Below, in pieces: positions 3,572 to 16,511 of a stretch of 64,000 nucleotides of DNA; the first letter of the stretch is position 1, and each line of letters opens with the position of its first letter. Below the pieces are notes generated by a model that saw nothing but the letters and a program-made list of their open reading frames with translations, was not told the origin of the DNA and searched no databases. The translations under genes and the position numbers were made by a program. This stretch comes from Bdellovibrionales bacterium (GTDB lineage Bacteria > Bdellovibrionota > UBA1018 > CAIMNF01): positions 51,130 to 115,129 of the forward strand of contig JBEIJY010000003.1 of assembly GCA_040380025.1 (NCBI GenBank), in the 5' to 3' direction.

Positions 3572-4324
3572 ATGAGGAAAATCTACATCCTTCCGAATCT
3601 GGTGACGACGGCGAATCTTGCGTGCGGGATTCTCTCGATGATCCATTCCATTCGCGGAGACTTCACCAAAGCGGCCTGGTTTGTCATCATCGGCGCGATC
3701 TGCGATTCGCTCGACGGCAGGATCGCCCGCTTCGCGCGCGCGACCTCGGCCTTCGGGGTCCAGTACGATTCCCTCTCGGATCTGACTTCTTTCGGAATCG
3801 CTCCGGCGATCCTGCTCTATGCCTACGGACTTCGCGGAATCGAGATCGGCGTGAGTGCGGTCGTGCTCTACGCGATCTGCGCCGCACTCCGGCTCGCCCG
3901 CTTCAATGTGAGCGCCGAGGAGAAAGATCCCTCCAAACTCCGAAAAATCAGAAAAGGCTATTTTCAGGGTCTTCCGTCGCCGGCATCGGCGGGGCTGATC
4001 GTGACCGCCATTCTGGTCCAGATTGAATTCTCTTTGCTTCCTCCCGGAATGATCGATACGGCGACCTTGTGCCTGGCCCTCGGGCTCGGCGTGCTCATGG
4101 TGAGCAATGTCCCGTTTCCCTCGTTCAAGGAGGTCAACTGGAGATCCAAAGGAAAAGCATGGATTTTGCTGATCCCCGTGATCTTCGTCTTGTGTGTGAT
4201 GCAGGCCCCCGAGCTGACGTTGTTCCTCTCGGGGTACTTGTATCTCACTCTCGGCCTCGGATGGGCCGCTTATCTCTGTTGGTTCAAGGATCGAAACAAA
4301 GGAGAAACGCTTGTGCCGGAATGA
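3572..4324 (+). CDS. pssA: CDP-diacylglycerol--serine O-phosphatidyltransferase (CDP-alcohol phosphatidyltransferase family)
   Basis: DGxxAR...G...D...D CDP-OH phosphotransferase motif (CDSLDGRIARFARATSAFGVQYDSLSD) in a multi-pass membrane protein. Confidence 0.75.
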   Translation: MRKIYILPNLVTTANLACGILSMIHSIRGDFTKAAWFVIIGAICDSLDGRIARFARATSAFGVQYDSLSDLTSFGIAPAILLYAYGLRGIEIGVSAVVLYAICAALRLARFNVSAEEKDPSKLRKIRKGYFQGLPSPASAGLIVTAILVQIEFSLLPPGMIDTATLCLALGLGVLMVSNVPFPSFKEVNWRSKGKAWILLIPVIFVLCVMQAPELTLFLSGYLYLTLGLGWAAYLCWFKDRNKGETLVPE

Positions 4325-6545
4325 AACGAAGGTCCGACCACTTTTGATTTTCATCTTCCTCCCGCTTCTCGTCCCCGGATGGGTTCGTGCGGGCGTGCTG
4401 GTCAATGCACCGCCACCGCACGATCAGCACCAAATGGGCGAAGCCAGCTACACGATCCATCAGGGCGGGAACAATACCGGGGTCCCCGCACAGACCGGAA
4501 CCTTCAATTCCACTCTGGGCTATCGATTCATCAACACGACCCTGAACACCGTCGAGAACCTGATCTGGCTCGATGTGAGCACGGACGACACCATCCAGGT
4601 GGATGCCGGAAAAAAACTCGTGGTGACCCTCTCGACCGGCACCAGTCCCGGTACCGAGATTCCGCTGACCGGTGCGGGACAGCCCGCGGCACCTAATGCT
4701 CCTCCTCCGGCATGCAACTTCGGGACGGTCACCTGTCAGGGGGGAGCGGGCGGAACGCTCTCTGCGATTTACCAGCGGGGCTCGGTTCTCAGGGTTTCGT
4801 TTTCGGTGCAGGCCCTCTGCGGAGCGGGCGCCACGGGAACGCTCTGCTCGGCAGGTGTCCCCGCGAACTTCGGGTCGGGGGCGACCCTCTCCCAGTCCAT
4901 CACGGTGAGCTTCAGTGCCGTGAATGATGGAACCACCGGGACTCTGGGCGGAACGAATTCGGGGACGTTCACTCTTGCCGTTTCTGACATCCCTCCGGTG
5001 ATTTCCTGCCCCGGAAGCGGAAACGTGGTCGATTATTACTTTCCGGGCGACGGCATGGTCTTTTTGGATCCGTCCCGGTACGGGCTGACCGCGGGTTCCT
5101 CGGGGAGTTATGCGGGCTTCGATGTGAAGTCGGTTGTGGTTCTCGCGAATCGTGGCTCTGTGAACGGGTTCACCGGCAACTTCGTGCCTGCGAACGAGGT
5201 GATCGCCTATGCAAAGGTGAACGGGGGGACCCAGGCGATTCCGGGCTTCGTGAACACCACCAATGGTACGGACAACAAGTACCAGGTGAAGCTCTACGCG
5301 CAGAACCTTGCCGGAATCGTTTCGCCGCTCGCCTGTGAGGTGACCCATCCGGATTTTCAGTTCCAGTCCCAGCCCATTCAGGGGGTCTTGAACGAGAGCA
5401 AGTGCTTCATCGCGACCGCCGCCTATCAGGACGGACGGGCCGCACCGGTGATGATGCTCCGGCGATTCCGGGACACGATCCTTGCCAAGCGGGAATGGGG
5501 CAGGCGCTTCATCGAAACCTACTACCGGCATTCCCCCGCTTGGGCGGAGTGGGCTTGGGACAAACCGCTGATTCGCTCTCTCGCTTTGCGCTTGCTTGCG
5601 CCGATCGAGCTTGCGGCCTGGCTCATTCTGAAGGCCTCGCAGGCCGAAGAGGTTTCCCCCCAGCCCTACATCGACAGCCTGAAGCAGGAGCTTGGGCTGT
5701 CCGGGCCCGCAGTGGCAGAAAGCTATATCGAGAGCGAGAAAGCCAAACTCGAAATCCCCGCTTCGAGCGGGGATCCAGAGGAATACATCAACCGGCTGAA
5801 GGGCGAGATCGGCCCCGGTGACTCGGGAGCCGGATACGCCGAGAGCGAACGGGTGAAATTACCCGAGCAGAAATCCGGACCGGGACCCATCGAGATGGTC
5901 TTGCGGGGCGAGGACCGTCTTCCCGAGCCCGAGAGGCCTGCGATCCATTCTGCTTTGGGGTTCATGGTCGGAGTCGCCCCCGGCATTGAGGTCACGAATA
6001 CCGGAGGAGCCTTGCAGTATAGCGACGTATACGGAGGAAAGTGGCAGCCTGAGCTTTTGGTCCATTACGAACGGCAACTCTTCCATTCCGAGACATTGGG
6101 GAGCTTCGGTCTGGGCGTCGACGGAGGGCTCTCGTTCGCGGACGGGTACGGAAGACTGACTTACCAGTTCAATGGCTCCACCGTGTCGCAGACGAAGTTC
6201 ACGTTTTATCAGTTTCCGGTGCTGTTCTCGGCCTATTACCGCTTCAATTTTTTGAAATTCATCAGACCCTACGCCGGCGGAAGCCTCGGTTCGATTTTTT
6301 ACATCGAAGATCGGAATGACGATGTCGACACGAAACGGGGTTACAATTTCGTGTACGCGGCTCATGCCGGCGTGAGCATTCTCCTCGATTTCTTCGATTC
6401 TCGCACCGCACGCGACGGGTACCTTTCTTCGGGCATCCAGCATTCCTACCTGTTCGCCGAATACCTGTACCTCGACAGCTTCAATCAAAGCGGCCTCGTT
6501 CTGAGCCGTTCCGGGATTTACACCGGATTTCTTTTCGAGATCTGA
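4311..6545 (+). CDS. Large secreted/surface protein: signal peptide, Gly/Thr/Ser-rich low-complexity region, CFIATAAY...RRFRD motif, C-terminal aromatic-rich beta-barrel-like domain
   Basis: N-terminal signal peptide (LLIFIFLPLLVPGWVRA). G/T/S/N-rich segment of about 350 aa. CFIATAAYQD...MMLRRFRDTIL...ETYYRHSPAWAEW motif. C-terminus has alternating aromatic/hydrophobic strands ending ...GFLFEI. Confidence 0.6.
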   Translation: MCRNETKVRPLLIFIFLPLLVPGWVRAGVLVNAPPPHDQHQMGEASYTIHQGGNNTGVPAQTGTFNSTLGYRFINTTLNTVENLIWLDVSTDDTIQVDAGKKLVVTLSTGTSPGTEIPLTGAGQPAAPNAPPPACNFGTVTCQGGAGGTLSAIYQRGSVLRVSFSVQALCGAGATGTLCSAGVPANFGSGATLSQSITVSFSAVNDGTTGTLGGTNSGTFTLAVSDIPPVISCPGSGNVVDYYFPGDGMVFLDPSRYGLTAGSSGSYAGFDVKSVVVLANRGSVNGFTGNFVPANEVIAYAKVNGGTQAIPGFVNTTNGTDNKYQVKLYAQNLAGIVSPLACEVTHPDFQFQSQPIQGVLNESKCFIATAAYQDGRAAPVMMLRRFRDTILAKREWGRRFIETYYRHSPAWAEWAWDKPLIRSLALRLLAPIELAAWLILKASQAEEVSPQPYIDSLKQELGLSGPAVAESYIESEKAKLEIPASSGDPEEYINRLKGEIGPGDSGAGYAESERVKLPEQKSGPGPIEMVLRGEDRLPEPERPAIHSALGFMVGVAPGIEVTNTGGALQYSDVYGGKWQPELLVHYERQLFHSETLGSFGLGVDGGLSFADGYGRLTYQFNGSTVSQTKFTFYQFPVLFSAYYRFNFLKFIRPYAGGSLGSIFYIEDRNDDVDTKRGYNFVYAAHAGVSILLDFFDSRTARDGYLSSGIQHSYLFAEYLYLDSFNQSGLVLSRSGIYTGFLFEI

Positions 6546-9971: not shown

Positions 9972-9989
9972 GGGCCGGTCTCAAAACAA

Positions 9990-10024
9990 AACCGCGCCCC
10001 TGGCAGCTTGCCGGGAGCGCGGTT
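9990..10024. terminator. GC-rich hairpin between convergent PLD and parB genes
   Basis: AACCGCGC...GCGCGGTT 8-bp stem. The flanking A-run on the plus strand gives a U-tract for the minus-strand transcript. Confidence 0.45.
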
Positions 10025-10045: not shown

Positions 10046-10942
10046 CTACTTCAGATTCGCGAGCGTGCGATCGACCGCCTCCGAGAGCCGCATCAGCTCC
10101 GCGCGCATCTGCTCCAGACGCTCGCGTCCTTCGCCGGCCTTCCAGGTGAACCCCGGGATCTTCACTTTCTTCGGAGTCACCGCATAGGTGAACGGCTTCG
10201 GCCCCGTTGCAGGCTTGCTTTGGTTTGTCTTCAGGATTCGCGCCTTCGAGATCAGCAGATCGCCCTCGTCCTCGCGCGAGGCATTGGCGATGATCGACAC
10301 ATGCTCCTCGACCGGTGCGTTCAGGAGATTCCGGAGGAGGGAGCGGTTCTTCAGGTTCTTCTCTTTCAAAAGCTCCTTGGTTTCGGCCGGAAGTCGCGTG
10401 AATCCGATGCACTCGGTGATGCGGGATTTCTTCTTGCCGAATCCGGTCGCGATCGCCTCGTGGCTCGAATACGCACCTGCGGTCAGAAGCGAGTTGTAGC
10501 CTTCGCCTTCTTCGATCGGGTGGAGGTCGACGCGGTCGAGGTTCTCGCGCAGGGCGATCTCGTGAACCGCCTTGTCGGTCGAGTTGATCACGCGCGCGGG
10601 AATCCGCTCGAGTCCGGCCAGTTTCGAGGCGCGCAGACGGCGCTCACCGGCGATCACCTTGTAGCGGTCGCCGTCTTGCACCACGAGGATGGGCTGGAGC
10701 ACGCCGTGCTCCTTGATGGAGTGGGCGAGGGCCGCGATTTCTTCGTCATCGAAATGCGTCCGCACCTGGAGCTCGGATGCGTCGACTTTTTCGACCGGGA
10801 CGAAGTTCACCAGAAACGTGGTGAGGCCCTTCAGTCCGCTGTGGGTGTTGTCGGCGCTCACCCGCGCGGTCGAGTAGAGTTGCTTCAGATATCCGCTTCC
10901 TTGGCGGGTTTTTGCTTCTTTTTTGTTGTCTTTGGTTTCCAT
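10046..10942 (-). CDS. parB: ParB/Spo0J-family partition protein
   Basis: ParB N-terminal domain with the GERRLRASKLAGL box (GERRxRA) and an HTH segment. Confidence 0.8.
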   Translation of the reverse strand: METKDNKKEAKTRQGSGYLKQLYSTARVSADNTHSGLKGLTTFLVNFVPVEKVDASELQVRTHFDDEEIAALAHSIKEHGVLQPILVVQDGDRYKVIAGERRLRASKLAGLERIPARVINSTDKAVHEIALRENLDRVDLHPIEEGEGYNSLLTAGAYSSHEAIATGFGKKKSRITECIGFTRLPAETKELLKEKNLKNRSLLRNLLNAPVEEHVSIIANASREDEGDLLISKARILKTNQSKPATGPKPFTYAVTPKKVKIPGFTWKAGEGRERLEQMRAELMRLSEAVDRTLANLK

Positions 10943-10973
10943 TCGTTCCTCCTTGATTTTATGAGAGTTCCGC

Positions 10974-12032
10974 TCAGTTCAGGAGCTCGCGGGTGAGCTC
11001 GGTCAGATCTTGCGCGCCATTTCCCTTCGAGTTCACGTCGAGCACGACGGTCCGGCGCTTGGTGGCCTCGTTCAGGTCGGCGCTCCGGTTCACCACCGAT
11101 TGGGCGCAAAAATCGGCGAATTGCGAGCGCAGCTCACCCAGCACTTCCTGGCTGATCACCTCGCGGTTGTCGTACATGTTCGGGATGATCTTCACATCGA
11201 GGGTCCGCCGGAACTCGCGTTGCATCTCATCGATGGTCGCCATGACGAGCGACATTCCGTGGAACGAGAGCGGATTCGTCGCGCAGATCACGTTCACGCG
11301 ATTCGAGGCCACCAGCATGGAGCCGTTCAGGATCGATGCGGCCGGGTTCGTGTCGGCGATGATGAGATCATACTGGTCCGAGATGCGGGTGATCGCCTCG
11401 GAGAGGCGGTATTCGCGCCGGGTTTTGTTGTTCAGCGGGATCTCGATGTTGCAGAGCTGAAGGTTCGCCGGAATCAGATCGAGTCCGGGAGAAACATTCA
11501 TCACGGCCTGATCGATCGGGAGATCATTGATGAGCACATCGTAAATGGTGGGGCGTTCGTGCGCATCGAGCACATCGAGATTCACGGTCAGGTGGCCTTG
11601 ACCGTCGAGATCGATCGCAAGCACGCGGTAGCCCAGGATGGATGCGATCATGACGAACTGCGCCGTAAGAGTGGATTTGCCGGTTCCGCCTTTTACGTTG
11701 TAGAACATCTGGATTTTATTTTTTGGATGCGGCGCGACATGCCTGGTCGCCGCGGCGATCGCGTCGCTCACCACAAGAGCGCTTCCTGCGGCTTCCGCGC
11801 CTGCGCCCATCAGTTCGGCGCGCACCGATTCGTGAACGCTCAGGTCGAATTCCCGGAGCATTCGAAAGAAATTTTGAACCTCCTCAAGGGCGATGACTTT
11901 TCGATCGACGTTCCCCACGCGCTTTTTTTGCGTGTTGATGATGCCGTTGTTTTCGAATGCTGGAATGAGATTTTTATCGATTTTGGCGAGCTGGGCAAAT
12001 TCGTTGGGTGTAAAGACCATGTCTCGTAGCAT
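10974..12032 (-). CDS. parA: ParA-family partition ATPase with an N-terminal extension of about 95 aa (type-Ia-like)
   Basis: Deviant Walker A KGGTGKST. Start moved to MLRDMVF, which has a GGAGG RBS 5 nt upstream. The pre-Walker extension suggests an HTH/operator-binding domain as in P1 ParA and F SopA. Confidence 0.75.
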   Translation of the reverse strand: MLRDMVFTPNEFAQLAKIDKNLIPAFENNGIINTQKKRVGNVDRKVIALEEVQNFFRMLREFDLSVHESVRAELMGAGAEAAGSALVVSDAIAAATRHVAPHPKNKIQMFYNVKGGTGKSTLTAQFVMIASILGYRVLAIDLDGQGHLTVNLDVLDAHERPTIYDVLINDLPIDQAVMNVSPGLDLIPANLQLCNIEIPLNNKTRREYRLSEAITRISDQYDLIIADTNPAASILNGSMLVASNRVNVICATNPLSFHGMSLVMATIDEMQREFRRTLDVKIIPNMYDNREVISQEVLGELRSQFADFCAQSVVNRSADLNEATKRRTVVLDVNSKGNGAQDLTELTRELLN

Positions 12033-12111
12033 AGATTCCTCCTTGATCTGTCTCACTGAGTGTAAATCGAGAAGATCAAGAATCAATCAAAAACTAAACA
12101 AAAAGAGTAGA

Positions 12112-12232
12112 CCGGTCGCCGTGGCGACCGGTGGAGAAAATACTCTCGATGGTGTTGCGTCGGACTCAAGTCGGTCGCCGTGGCGACCGATGAAGATGGG
12201 TTACCCTGATCGGTCGCCACGGCGACCGGTGA
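12112..12232. repeat. Three copies of a 16-20 bp palindrome (CGGTCGCC-GT/AC-GGCGACCG) upstream of parA
   Basis: Copies at 12112-12131, 12171-12190 and 12211-12230 with perfect 8-9 bp inverted arms. Candidate par operator or centromere-like site. Confidence 0.6.
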
Positions 12233-13858: not shown

Positions 13859-14857
13859 TCAGCTCTGGTAGATCCGTTGGATCACCCGCTCCAGCGAGGA
13901 TTCCTGGATTCCGATATCCGCCACTTCGAAATTCGCGAGGAGCTTCTGAAAGTACTCGGTGATGCGAGAGCGGGCGATGGGGATCAGATAGGTGGTGGGG
14001 TCTTCTTCGTCCATGGTCACGGCAGAGGCATCGAGTCCGAGGGTTGTTGATACCTGTGCCGCTTCGGGCGAGCTCAAGAGCTTCACCTTGAGCGTGCATT
14101 CGTCCCGCTCGATCAGGGTCTTCGGGTTTCCATCAAAAATCAGCGAGCCCTCTTTGATCAAAAGAATGCGCTTACAGAGCTCCGAGATGTCATCCATGTT
14201 GTGACTGGTCAGGATGATCGTTGCTCCCTCCTTCTGGTTGTGGGTCCGCAAAAACTCCCGGAGCCGCTTCGAGGCCAGAACATCAAGGCCGATCGTGGGC
14301 TCATCCAAAAAGATCACCTTGGGCAGATGAAGAATCGCGCCGATCACCTCCATCTTCATTCGCTCCCCGAGTGAGAGGCGGCGAATCTGGGTGTTCAGGA
14401 GCTTCTCGACCCCGAGGAGGGCGGTAAGCTCGTCCACCCGCGTACGATACACCTCGCGGGGGATCTGATAGAGCGCGCGCAGAAGATCAAAGGCCTCGAG
14501 TGCGGGAAGATCCCACCAGAGCTGGGCCTTCTGCCCCATGACGATCGAAATCTGACGGCGGAACTCGATCGAGCGTTCGAACGGAGTGAAGCCCAGAACC
14601 CGAGCGTCTCCCGAGGTCGGGGGGATCAGGCCCGATAAGATTTTCAGGAGCGTGGTTTTGCCGGCACCGTTTGCGCCAATCAGACCGGTGAACTCTCCCT
14701 GCTGGACCTCGAACGAGACGCCCTTCAGGGCCTCATGGACTTGGTATTCCGGTCGGAACAGGAGCTTCAGGACTCCTTGAAGGCCCTCTTGTTTTTTGAC
14801 GGACTTGAAGGTGCGCCGGACATCCCGAACAAAGAGCGCAGGCTCATTCGATCTCAT
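13859..14857 (-). CDS. ABC transporter ATP-binding protein
   Basis: Walker A GANGAGKTT, ABC signature LSLGER, Walker B FLDEPT. Confidence 0.85.
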   Translation of the reverse strand: MRSNEPALFVRDVRRTFKSVKKQEGLQGVLKLLFRPEYQVHEALKGVSFEVQQGEFTGLIGANGAGKTTLLKILSGLIPPTSGDARVLGFTPFERSIEFRRQISIVMGQKAQLWWDLPALEAFDLLRALYQIPREVYRTRVDELTALLGVEKLLNTQIRRLSLGERMKMEVIGAILHLPKVIFLDEPTIGLDVLASKRLREFLRTHNQKEGATIILTSHNMDDISELCKRILLIKEGSLIFDGNPKTLIERDECTLKVKLLSSPEAAQVSTTLGLDASAVTMDEEDPTTYLIPIARSRITEYFQKLLANFEVADIGIQESSLERVIQRIYQS

Positions 14858-15845
14858 GAGTCACCCATCGCTTTCCGACCATTTTCTCGGCGGGGAGGGA
14901 CTTCGGCAGAACGGCATTGTACCGGAGCTTGATCGGTACCGATTCGCCCAAGCCTTCGGGTTTGAAGAGGGTCCCTGCAAAGCTTTCTTCGACCGGGAAC
15001 ACGGTGATCAGCGCAGGGCTCTCGGGAGGCGCGTTCTTTCTTTGGGTCAAAATCGAATAAATCAGAATCGCCTTGTTCTTTCCGTGAGGGTTGTCTTTCA
15101 AAAAAGGAACGATGTCCGTCCGGATCTCGATGGTCTCGTCCTCGGCCGTGATTTGCTCGATCAGACGCCGCGGTTTCAGTGAGGCAAAGTCAAACTTCAA
15201 CAGCTCCCGCGGTGCCCGATGCGCGGACTTGCGAGCAAGATCCGACATCTTCTTCATGCCCTCATTCGAATCCCGAAAGGCGATCCTTCCGGCAAGAAGG
15301 CTCAAGTTCAAAAGAAGAGTGCCTTTTTTGGGCATTCCCCCGAGCAGTCCTTCGGACAAACCGAAGCCCGCCTCGATTTCATGCTTCCCATAGCGGGCGC
15401 GTTTGTAGCCGTACGGGGTTCTGACGGTGCTGAAGAGGTAACCGTAGGTGTGGGTGAGGCCCGCATGCCCGGTGGTGTAAGTTTCGTCAAAGGGGACCTT
15501 CAATGTCCGGTTGAAGAACTGAAGCAGATTCGCCGGAACGGTTTTGGTCCCGGTTGCGAGATTGCTCTCGTCGATGTTGCGGCTCAGGCCCCAGAGCGAG
15601 AGGAGTCCGGGCGTTTTTTGATCCCGCTCGAGCTGGCGCAAAAACCCGGGGATTGATTTCTCGAGGGTGGCGCGAATCGTTTTGGGATCCTCGATGCCTT
15701 CGAGGGAGCGGGCCGTTCCGGCCCAAGGGCAGTCCTCGCGCGTTTCGAGAGCCTCGGGGTTCGGGCACTGGGCCCGGCCAGGGGCTCCGAAGGCGAGGCC
15801 TGCGAGCCCCAGAAGTGCCTGAAGGAGTGTAATTTTTGCGCGCAT
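14844..15845 (-). CDS. Secreted hypothetical protein
   Basis: Start set at MRAKITLLQALLGLAGLAFGAPGRAQ (signal peptide). No recognizable catalytic motif. Confidence 0.5.
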   Translation of the reverse strand: MRAKITLLQALLGLAGLAFGAPGRAQCPNPEALETREDCPWAGTARSLEGIEDPKTIRATLEKSIPGFLRQLERDQKTPGLLSLWGLSRNIDESNLATGTKTVPANLLQFFNRTLKVPFDETYTTGHAGLTHTYGYLFSTVRTPYGYKRARYGKHEIEAGFGLSEGLLGGMPKKGTLLLNLSLLAGRIAFRDSNEGMKKMSDLARKSAHRAPRELLKFDFASLKPRRLIEQITAEDETIEIRTDIVPFLKDNPHGKNKAILIYSILTQRKNAPPESPALITVFPVEESFAGTLFKPEGLGESVPIKLRYNAVLPKSLPAEKMVGKRWVTHEIE

Positions 15846-15875
15846 GGGTGTATCGTTTAGCCGAAAGACCCCCAA

Positions 15876-16511
15876 ATGAAAAGTCAAGACTCTGTCCCCT
15901 ACTATGAGCACCACGCCCTTCGCCTTGCGGAGCAGGATCTTCGAGTGAAGTCTCCGGGAGAACTCGTGCCGTTCCTCGAGCTTCTGGTCCCGAACGGACG
16001 GGTGCTCGATCTCGGATGCGGCTCGGGGTTCGACTTGCAGTGGATCCGGCGCTCCGGTCGGGAAGGGGTGGGAATCGATGCCGCACCCTCGCGGGCCCGG
16101 ATTGCGCGCGAACAAAACCCGGGGGCCGAGATTCTCGAAAAAAACTTTCTGTTTTACTCCCCGAAAGAGTCCGAGTGGGACGGAGTCTGGGCGAATCGAT
16201 CGCTTCATCATGATTCCCCCGAGGCGGTCCAACGGGTGGTGGCAGGCGTATTCCGGGGACTCAGACCGGGAGGGATTTTCGGAGTGGTCGTGTACGAGGG
16301 ATCAGGCGGGTTTCAGGATCGCGAGGGCGACTACTTGGGACCGTCCCGGTCTTTGCACCCGTGGAGAGAAAAGGCGCTTTGCAGTCTCTTGGAGCAAACC
16401 GGATTTCAGATTCTGAAGGTCGGACGAAAGCCCGCGGCTCCCGAAGAAGGGCATGCGCTCCCCGGGCTATTGGTTCTGGCAAAAAAAATCGGGTCTAGGG
16501 TTTCTGGCTGA
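15876..16511 (+). CDS. Class I SAM-dependent methyltransferase
   Basis: VLDLGCGSG motif I and downstream Rossmann-like motifs. Confidence 0.7.
   Translation: MKSQDSVPYYEHHALRLAEQDLRVKSPGELVPFLELLVPNGRVLDLGCGSGFDLQWIRRSGREGVGIDAAPSRARIAREQNPGAEILEKNFLFYSPKESEWDGVWANRSLHHDSPEAVQRVVAGVFRGLRPGGIFGVVVYEGSGGFQDREGDYLGPSRSLHPWREKALCSLLEQTGFQILKVGRKPAAPEEGHALPGLLVLAKKIGSRVSG

Follow-up and report, generated by a model that had tools for sequence, protein, structure and literature searches.

The partition site parS is nearly universal and ranks among the best-conserved cis-elements of bacteria, and changes in the DNA specificity of ParB have so far been studied mainly with Noc and with plasmid or secondary-chromosome systems. 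Here, we analysed a parA–parB operon and its associated palindromes in a 64,000-nucleotide stretch of DNA from a Bdellovibrionales bacterium (GenBank assembly GCA_040380025.1, contig JBEIJY010000003.1, positions 51,130 to 115,129), which is called the window in the following. We propose, with a probability of about 0.6, that these elements form a chromosomal ParABS-type module that is inherited vertically and is characteristic of UBA1018, an uncultured class of Bdellovibrionota, and that its ParB loads on the palindromes. This class-wide system with a winged-helix ParA would then exemplify how a bacterial centromere has been re-specified in nature.

The chromosomal ParABS systems of Myxococcus, Caulobacter, Bacillus, and Bdellovibrio bacteriovorus (Soj/Spo0J-parS) are similar to the UBA1018 locus in several respects. 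Both have a two-gene parA–parB operon on the chromosome, a ParB with a GERRxRA-containing ParB_N domain, a helix-turn-helix (HTH), and an N-terminal basic peptide, and several 16–18 bp palindromes of a 7-2-7 layout in and beside the par genes, and among solved structures, Soj is closest to the ATPase core of the UBA1018 ParA. The site, however, is GGTCGCC-RY-GGCGACC and not TGTTNCACGTGNAACA, with half-sites that are identical only at G1, T2, and C5, and the ParB helix has K/C/R/S in place of R/T/A/G. The UBA1018 ParA shares only about 28% identity with Soj and possesses an extra winged helix and a linker, and gidAB, dnaA, and rpmH were not found within 10 kb of the locus in a regular-expression search that had no positive control.

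With the type Ia systems (P1/P7 ParA-ParB-parS and F SopABC) and with ParA2-ParB2-parS2 of V. cholerae, the locus shares the winged helix in front of the ParA ATPase and a non-canonical centromere sequence. Nevertheless, the UBA1018 ParA lacks the additional N-terminal alpha-1 helix of these ParAs (352 versus about 400 amino acids), its ATPase core is nearer to Soj, and its ParB is of the chromosomal type. In type Ia systems, the centromere lies downstream of parB, whereas the UBA1018 sites are upstream of and inside parA, and the locus is part of a housekeeping region of the main chromosome that is kept throughout the class, not of a plasmid or prophage. Noc, the Firmicutes paralogue of ParB, offers a parallel in that the HTH specificity positions probably have changed in UBA1018 as well, together with a different 7-2-7 palindrome, a layout that is common to parS, the Noc-binding site (NBS), and sopC. 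The UBA1018 residues are not the QKKR of Noc, though, the operon includes its own ParA, and the site is unlike NBS at most positions. The N-terminal domain of the UBA1018 ParA differs from MerR/excisionase domains (AlpA, Xis) in that it is joined to a ParA ATPase, lacks both the coiled-coil and the effector domain of MerR, and has a helix 2 that is not conserved within the family.

Palindromic sites upstream of and inside parA

According to open reading frames (ORFs) and translations, the operon is encoded on the minus strand and consists of parA (10974..12032, 352 amino acids) followed by parB (10046..10942, 298 amino acids). Three perfect 18-bp palindromes with spacings of 59 and 40 bp precede it, namely CGGTCGCC-GT-GGCGACCG at 12113..12130, 82 bp upstream of the parA ATG, the same sequence at 12172..12189, and CGGTCGCC-AC-GGCGACCG at 12211..12228, which is the same site in opposite orientation. 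A first-pass annotation of this DNA had already described the gene pair with these three palindromes and spacings, which we can confirm; the sites exceed what dinucleotide shuffling yields, as the site pattern matched seven times at up to three mismatches and 0 of 100 dinucleotide-preserving shuffles reached seven. The three copies were thus correctly listed, but the list was incomplete, since it overlooked a fourth copy with one mismatch, GGTCGCCGCGGCGATC, which is located within parA (11745..11760, minus strand) and encodes AIAAAT. Nowhere else in the window was the site found. The palindromes had also been judged to be unlike canonical parS, in agreement with the counterpart scan using TGTTNCACGTGNAACA, which gave no match in the window at up to three mismatches.

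A genome scan for ParA orthologues returned 113 species-level genomes, and 80 of them were kept. All 80 are metagenome-assembled genomes (MAGs) of uncultured Bdellovibrionota, with ParAs that are 57–87% identical. Sites were counted in a family sample of 82 loci, comprising 1.28 Mb with guanine–cytosine (GC) contents of 38–64%, and expectations were derived from base composition. The perfect-site pattern GGTCGCCNNGGCGACC occurred 277 times, as compared to an expected 0.01, and was kept in genomes over the entire range from 38 to 64% GC. The full 18-bp consensus is YGGTCGCC-RY-GGCGACCR, and the most widely shared 11-mers of the family loci come from this palindrome. No second conserved palindrome that could act as a centromere was detected in these loci, and canonical parS gave only three matches in the 1.28 Mb, each with two mismatches, which is consistent with chance.

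The placement of the sites is strongly biased. The region from -400 to 0 relative to parA contains 156 of them, 81 are inside parA, 37 are farther upstream, and three are in parB, so that 274 of the 277 sites either precede parA or fall into its 5' part. Not one lies beyond parB, though about 590 kb of sequence downstream of parA were covered. A locus usually has two to six perfect sites (range 0–8) at irregular spacings of 35–118 bp, and the distance to the probable promoter varies among loci. This variable number and placement fits a centromere better than a promoter-anchored operator.

The intragenic copies are informative with regard to the level of selection. A perfect copy is present in the parA linker in 66 of the 82 loci, and these copies use two reading frames, encoding either V-A-x-A-T or G-R-x-G-D, at varying places within the variable linker. 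Selection therefore acts on the DNA of the site rather than on the linker peptide.

The sites are linked to parAB and not to the neighbouring genes, as they still adjoin parA in three loci that have no ATP-binding cassette (ABC) transporter operon (L074, L075, and L081) and are absent at an orphan parA (L082, described below). A role as regulator site for the upstream ABC operon was rejected, since the sites stay with parA where that operon is absent. In one locus (L029, JAEUWC010000030.1), an inversion has reversed the ABC operon with respect to parA, about 1.1–3 kb upstream, and the cluster has moved along with it to -2977, -2940, and -2874. A further site of this locus is at -1620 inside the ABC ATPase gene, and perfect sites are absent at the parA promoter and within parA. 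Overall, the suggestion of the first-pass annotation that the palindromes serve as a non-canonical operator or centromere was borne out to the extent that they are conserved, parA-linked sites across the 82 loci.

We also scanned metagenomes for tandem sites and obtained 88 contigs, comprising 27 family loci and 61 unrelated, mostly high-GC contigs. The family contigs have parA and/or ABC-2 genes next to the sites, which fit the 18-bp consensus. The unrelated contigs contain the bare 14-base core with other centres and flanks, and most fail the 18-bp consensus. The bare core is thus not unique, and only the full 18-bp consensus in combination with the genomic context is diagnostic. Two of the unrelated contigs (L146, Ga0315284_10014566, GC 0.69; and L156, ERZ795030 NODE-20350) carry four full-consensus 18-bp palindromes each, and no ParA or ParB of the UBA1018 family was detectable on either; these palindromes may be chance repeats resembling repetitive extragenic palindromic (REP) elements, or may belong to a different system with a similar site. 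Further high-GC metagenome contigs, including L095, L154, and L163, have the 14-base core in longer repeat units with a regular period of 21–63 bp; these repeats, tandem or interspersed, have no relation to parAB.

The occurrence of the core as tandem repeats on the 61 unrelated contigs, and a T-rich stretch that follows palindrome 1 and was flagged as terminator-like, could indicate that the palindromes are generic GC-rich REP-like repeats or act as intrinsic terminators for the ABC operon upstream. Within the clade, however, it is the sequence itself that is invariant and not mere pairing ability, copies reside inside parA, the flanks have no consistent T run, and the window contains the site at no other place. 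As the unrelated contigs moreover differ in centres and flanks and mostly fail the consensus, and as a search of the window against Rfam at gathering thresholds gave no match, we regard this explanation as practically refuted, together with any reading of the sites as RNA elements.

ParB as the probable reader of the palindromes

ParB is composed of an N-terminal CTP (cytidine triphosphate)-binding-type domain, an HTH, and a variable C-terminus, with Pfam matches to ParB_N (2e-27) and HTH_ParB (1.8e-8). It scores above the cut-off of TIGR00180 (132 versus 58 bits), its top match in the PDB is Myxococcus ParB (7bnk, 4e-34), followed by Thermus Spo0J and Bacillus Spo0J, and it carries GERRLRA and ENLDR motifs. 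GERRLRA is the CTP-binding signature of ParB clamps; in the window ParB, it comprises residues 99–105 (10628..10648, minus strand) and is nearly invariant among 74 orthologues. By these features, ParB is a chromosomal-type ParB with a CTP motif, and it is predicted to use CTP.

The HTH, in contrast to the remainder of the protein, deviates from Spo0J-like ParBs. The recognition helix KSRITECIGFTRL (residues 172–184, 10391..10429, minus strand) differs from the canonical RSHVANTMRLLAL, and the helix region reads GKKKSRITECIGFTRLP where canonical ParBs have GKSRSHVANTMRLLALP. Per-column entropies in the 74 orthologues demonstrated that this deviation is fixed in the family: from K172 to L184, 9 of the 13 positions show no variation at all (entropy 0) and the others do not exceed 0.8 bit, and K189, R200, and R204 are invariant as well. 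When positions are numbered via a Caulobacter ParB sequence, the specificity positions 173/179/184/201 are K/C/R/S in place of the R/T/A/G of parS binders, which should be taken as a lead and not as a measurement. By the same mapping, the Lys at 173 replaces the Arg of parS-specific variants, which combine R173 with G, S, T, or C at 201. In the work that identified these four positions, RTAG was specific for parS and QKKR for NBS, and R173 was invariant in parS-specific variants (Jalal et al., PMC7383237).

As the 14 specified bases of the site never vary, a reader with an invariant recognition surface is to be expected. Judged by the alignments, the near-invariant recognition helix of ParB matches the invariant site, and the variable helix 2 of ParA, described below, apparently does not. 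The palindrome is also the candidate loading site of ParB, because a CTP-type ParB needs such a site and there is no other conserved candidate. ParB is thus in our view the probable reader, reading by ParA alone is unlikely, and the remainder of the probability falls to reading by both proteins.

Residues 10–27 of ParB (10891–10942) include a nearly invariant peptide, KTRQGSGYLKQLYSTAR, that precedes the usual GLxxL-type motif. This peptide is a candidate for a family-specific ParA-contact or ATPase-stimulating peptide.

The winged helix of ParA

ParA consists of an N-terminal winged helix, a variable linker, and a Walker-type ATPase (Pfam AAA_31, 9.5e-36; CbiA also matched). The deviant Walker A motif KGGTGKST at residues 114–121 (11670..11693, minus strand), noted already in the first-pass annotation, is invariant in all columns of an 89-sequence alignment, and the ATPase core is preceded by about 105 residues, somewhat more than the 95 given there. 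Residues 1–63 (11844..12032, minus strand) form a MerR/excisionase-type winged HTH that was modelled confidently by AlphaFold2 (predicted local confidence, pLDDT, of 80 for the ParA model). Residues 64–105 (11718..11843, minus strand) are a linker with a pLDDT of 50–66 that varies in length and sequence and hosts the intragenic palindrome. In this otherwise variable, low-confidence linker, the peptide motif MGxGAExAG (residues ~73–81, 11790–11816) is kept in the window and in orthologues.

A Foldseek comparison of the model with Soj structures gave E-values of 1e-14 to 5e-17, and Soj, with 25–29% identity, is the nearest solved structure to the ATPase core. ParA thus belongs to the ParA/Soj superfamily of deviant Walker A partition ATPases. 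Over the full length, the model could be aligned only with VcParA2 and P1 ParA, and the modelled winged helix, which these two proteins share, supports the type-Ia-like architecture that had been proposed from the sequence. ParA is nevertheless far below the NCBIfam cut-offs for SopA (15.9 versus 725 bits) and RepA (74.8 versus 348 bits).

Several points speak against ParB as the reader and the chromosome as the cargo. The N-domain of ParA is a genuine DNA-binding fold and the homologue of the domain with which P1 ParA binds its operator, its wing GNVDRK is invariant, palindromes of about 18 bp are bound by MerR-type dimers as well, and every site is on the promoter side of the operon, as expected of an operator. 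Furthermore, no switch of the GC skew is seen anywhere in the window, and DnaA, MnmG, MnmE, and RpmH motifs were absent within 10 kb in all 82 loci, the latter being weak evidence, as the regular expressions used had no positive control.

The fold, the wing, the site length, and the clustering around the parA promoter would all be accounted for if the palindromes were operators for the winged helix of ParA, in a type-Ia-style autorepression as known for P1 ParA and F SopA, with the true loading site of ParB elsewhere or unrecognised. We consider this unlikely. The exposed positions 21, 22, 24, 25, and 28 of helix 2, which would have to read 14 invariant bases, have entropies of 2–3 bits with 8–14 residue types, and conservation of the winged helix is restricted to the structural residues L26, E27, and G30 and to the wing. 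Neither the number of sites nor their spacing nor their distance to the promoter is fixed, some are found within the coding region or as far as several kb upstream, and the inversion in L029 has placed them 3 kb from parA. An operator role would also leave the CTP-type ParB with no other conserved palindrome as centromere, and an orphan parA that has neither parB nor the sites still keeps the winged helix.

This orphan (L082:6001-6936, JGI Ga0170573_10203532) encodes a ParA relative with 41% identity that has retained the winged helix and has no linker. Its Walker A is degenerate (KDRAGKT versus KGGTGKS), the next gene encodes a membrane protein instead of ParB, and the upstream region is devoid of the palindrome. 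The orphan has the appearance of a copy of the partition system that has decayed in a related organism.

Outside the family, among 1.84 billion representatives, the nearest relatives of ParA are ParAs of 310–360 amino acids with 33–45% identity and HTH-like N-terminal extensions. Some of them are accompanied by conjugation genes on the same contig and have partners other than ParB_N proteins. The contexts of four distant winged-helix relatives (P0127, P0129, P0131, and P0134) contained neither a ParB_N partner nor the palindrome. Another relative, P0125 (713 amino acids), is a single polypeptide that contains the winged-helix-ParA unit twice in tandem. Both units possess a Walker A of their own and show about 33% identity to the ATPase of the window ParA, and the protein would be a covalently fused ParA 'dimer'.

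Distribution, synteny, and alternative origins

The module is widespread in a single class. More than 500 full-length ParA homologues with at least 57% identity were found, and the best 120 of these more than 500 are at least 68% identical. The genome set includes the MAG UBA1018 itself, and two loci, L043 and L064, that belong to FG-2 and FG-1, respectively, carry the parAB-palindrome module. FG-1 and FG-2 are magnetotactic Bdellovibrionota that have been assigned to UBA1018, a GTDB class with the proposed name Bdellonasia (PMC13200544). Partition genes are not mentioned in that paper, and we found no description of the module in the searchable literature, in which the site sequence gave one unrelated match only.

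Gene order is highly conserved. In 80 of 81 loci, parB is directly downstream of parA, and 67 of 81 have retained the order ABC ATPase, ABC-2, ABC-2, sites, parA, parB. On the parB side, a block consisting of tig, truA, a gene for an unknown 744-amino-acid protein, pgsA, tsaB, and rseP is often kept, and the arrangement of ABC transporter, sites, parA, parB, and tig-truA is present in about 80 species-level UBA1018 genomes. In 72,556 plasmids, there was no close relative of ParA, the best match having 38% identity in the ATPase domain only, and 2.9 million viral contigs contained no family member. This class-wide synteny, together with the lack of close plasmid or viral relatives, demonstrates that the locus is ancestral to the class-level clade and not a recent insertion.

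The first-pass annotation had correctly seen the flanking phospholipase D and ABC-2 transporter genes and the housekeeping chromosomal context, and had regarded the locus as a possible remnant of an integrated replicon. A recently integrated plasmid or secondary replicon would explain the type Ia or secondary-chromosome architecture of ParA and the mobile-element-like contigs among its closest relatives outside the family. However, the GC content, the GC content at third codon positions (GC3) and other codon positions, and the GC skew are uniform across the par locus and match the neighbouring genes, and no rep, tra, or integrase genes are among the genes of the window. With synteny on both sides across about 80 species and the above-described plasmid and viral searches, a recent island or integrated replicon is largely refuted and very improbable.

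A different alternative is that the operon is a second, insulated ParA/ParB system that exists alongside a canonical Soj-Spo0J-parS and has a role other than origin segregation, such as the positioning of another chromosomal region, a Noc-like function, or regulation. Cultured Bdellovibrio has a canonical ParABS (PMC10547168), and a specificity change of ParB after duplication is known from Noc (PMC7383237), whose model TIGR04285 gave the highest NCBIfam score of our ParB (147 bits). A second system would also agree with the nearest ParA relatives being winged-helix ParAs and not Soj, some of them on conjugative-element-like contigs, with the decayed copy in one related contig, and with the missing origin markers and skew switch mentioned above. 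On the other hand, the Noc score is far below the cut-off of 315 bits, and Noc has no cognate ParA. That both proteins and the sites are conserved throughout the class fits a core function, and no canonical parS and no second parAB was found in the 1.28 Mb of family loci, which are a small sample of each genome; in the window, too, there was no second parA or parB. We thus judge a second system to be improbable, about on a par with the operator alternative.

Proposed mechanism and implications

If the chromosomal ParABS-type reading is correct, ParB would be a CTP-motif clamp of the chromosomal Spo0J family with a diverged recognition helix, and would load on the 18-bp palindromes that are clustered just upstream of and inside the 5' part of parA. 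The palindromes would constitute the parS-equivalent centromere of the system, the chromosome would be its cargo, and ParA, with its Walker ATPase and a MerR-like winged helix on a flexible linker, would be the partner motor. As the parA promoter is flanked by the site cluster, autoregulation of the operon by ParB loaded there is probable as well. A more far-reaching version, which we hold only tentatively and at less than even odds, is that the primary chromosomal centromere was re-specified across UBA1018. In this version, the palindrome, a ParB whose helix has been rewritten, and a winged-helix ParA with relatives on mobile elements would have taken the place of parS and Soj.

In that case, centromere identity would have switched naturally on the main chromosome of an entire lineage, with sites maintained even in the coding sequence of the ParA linker. 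The alternative of an insulated second ParABS on one chromosome would be of interest as well. The UBA1018 module combines a chromosomal-type ParB with a winged-helix ParA, and its invariant new site and near-invariant new recognition helix, on an otherwise Spo0J-like ParB, form a class-wide natural pair. This pair is a test case for the evolution of ParB–DNA specificity and possibly a further orthogonal ParB/parS pair for DNA-labelling tools. A further aspect is that selection maintains centromere-like sites within the coding sequence of a protein linker, and this in two reading frames. As the clade is wholly uncultured and has magnetotactic members, these predictions are at present the sole handle on its chromosome biology.

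Other features of the window

The Shine-Dalgarno sequence of parA, GGAGG, is located at 12038..12042 (minus strand), 5' of the ATG at 12032, and AAGGAGG is conserved in orthologous loci. A longer, TTG-started ORF of parA was rejected, as the orthologues give no support for it. After parB, a consensus scan identified a terminator-like hairpin with a T run (9989..10009, minus strand), which is the probable end of the operon.

The neighbouring genes have housekeeping functions and include cdsA, rseP, tsaB, pgsA, truA, tig, the phospholipase D gene, the ABC-2 transporter, a miaB-like gene, queG, dus, and recG. Between pgsA and truA, a 744-amino-acid ORF (4311–6545, plus strand) has no Pfam match and occupies the same position in at least 27 related loci; its product is a clade-specific core protein without an assigned function. 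A 462-amino-acid ORF (14844–16232, minus strand), likewise without Pfam match, is directly upstream of the ABC ATPase gene and syntenic in 31 related loci.

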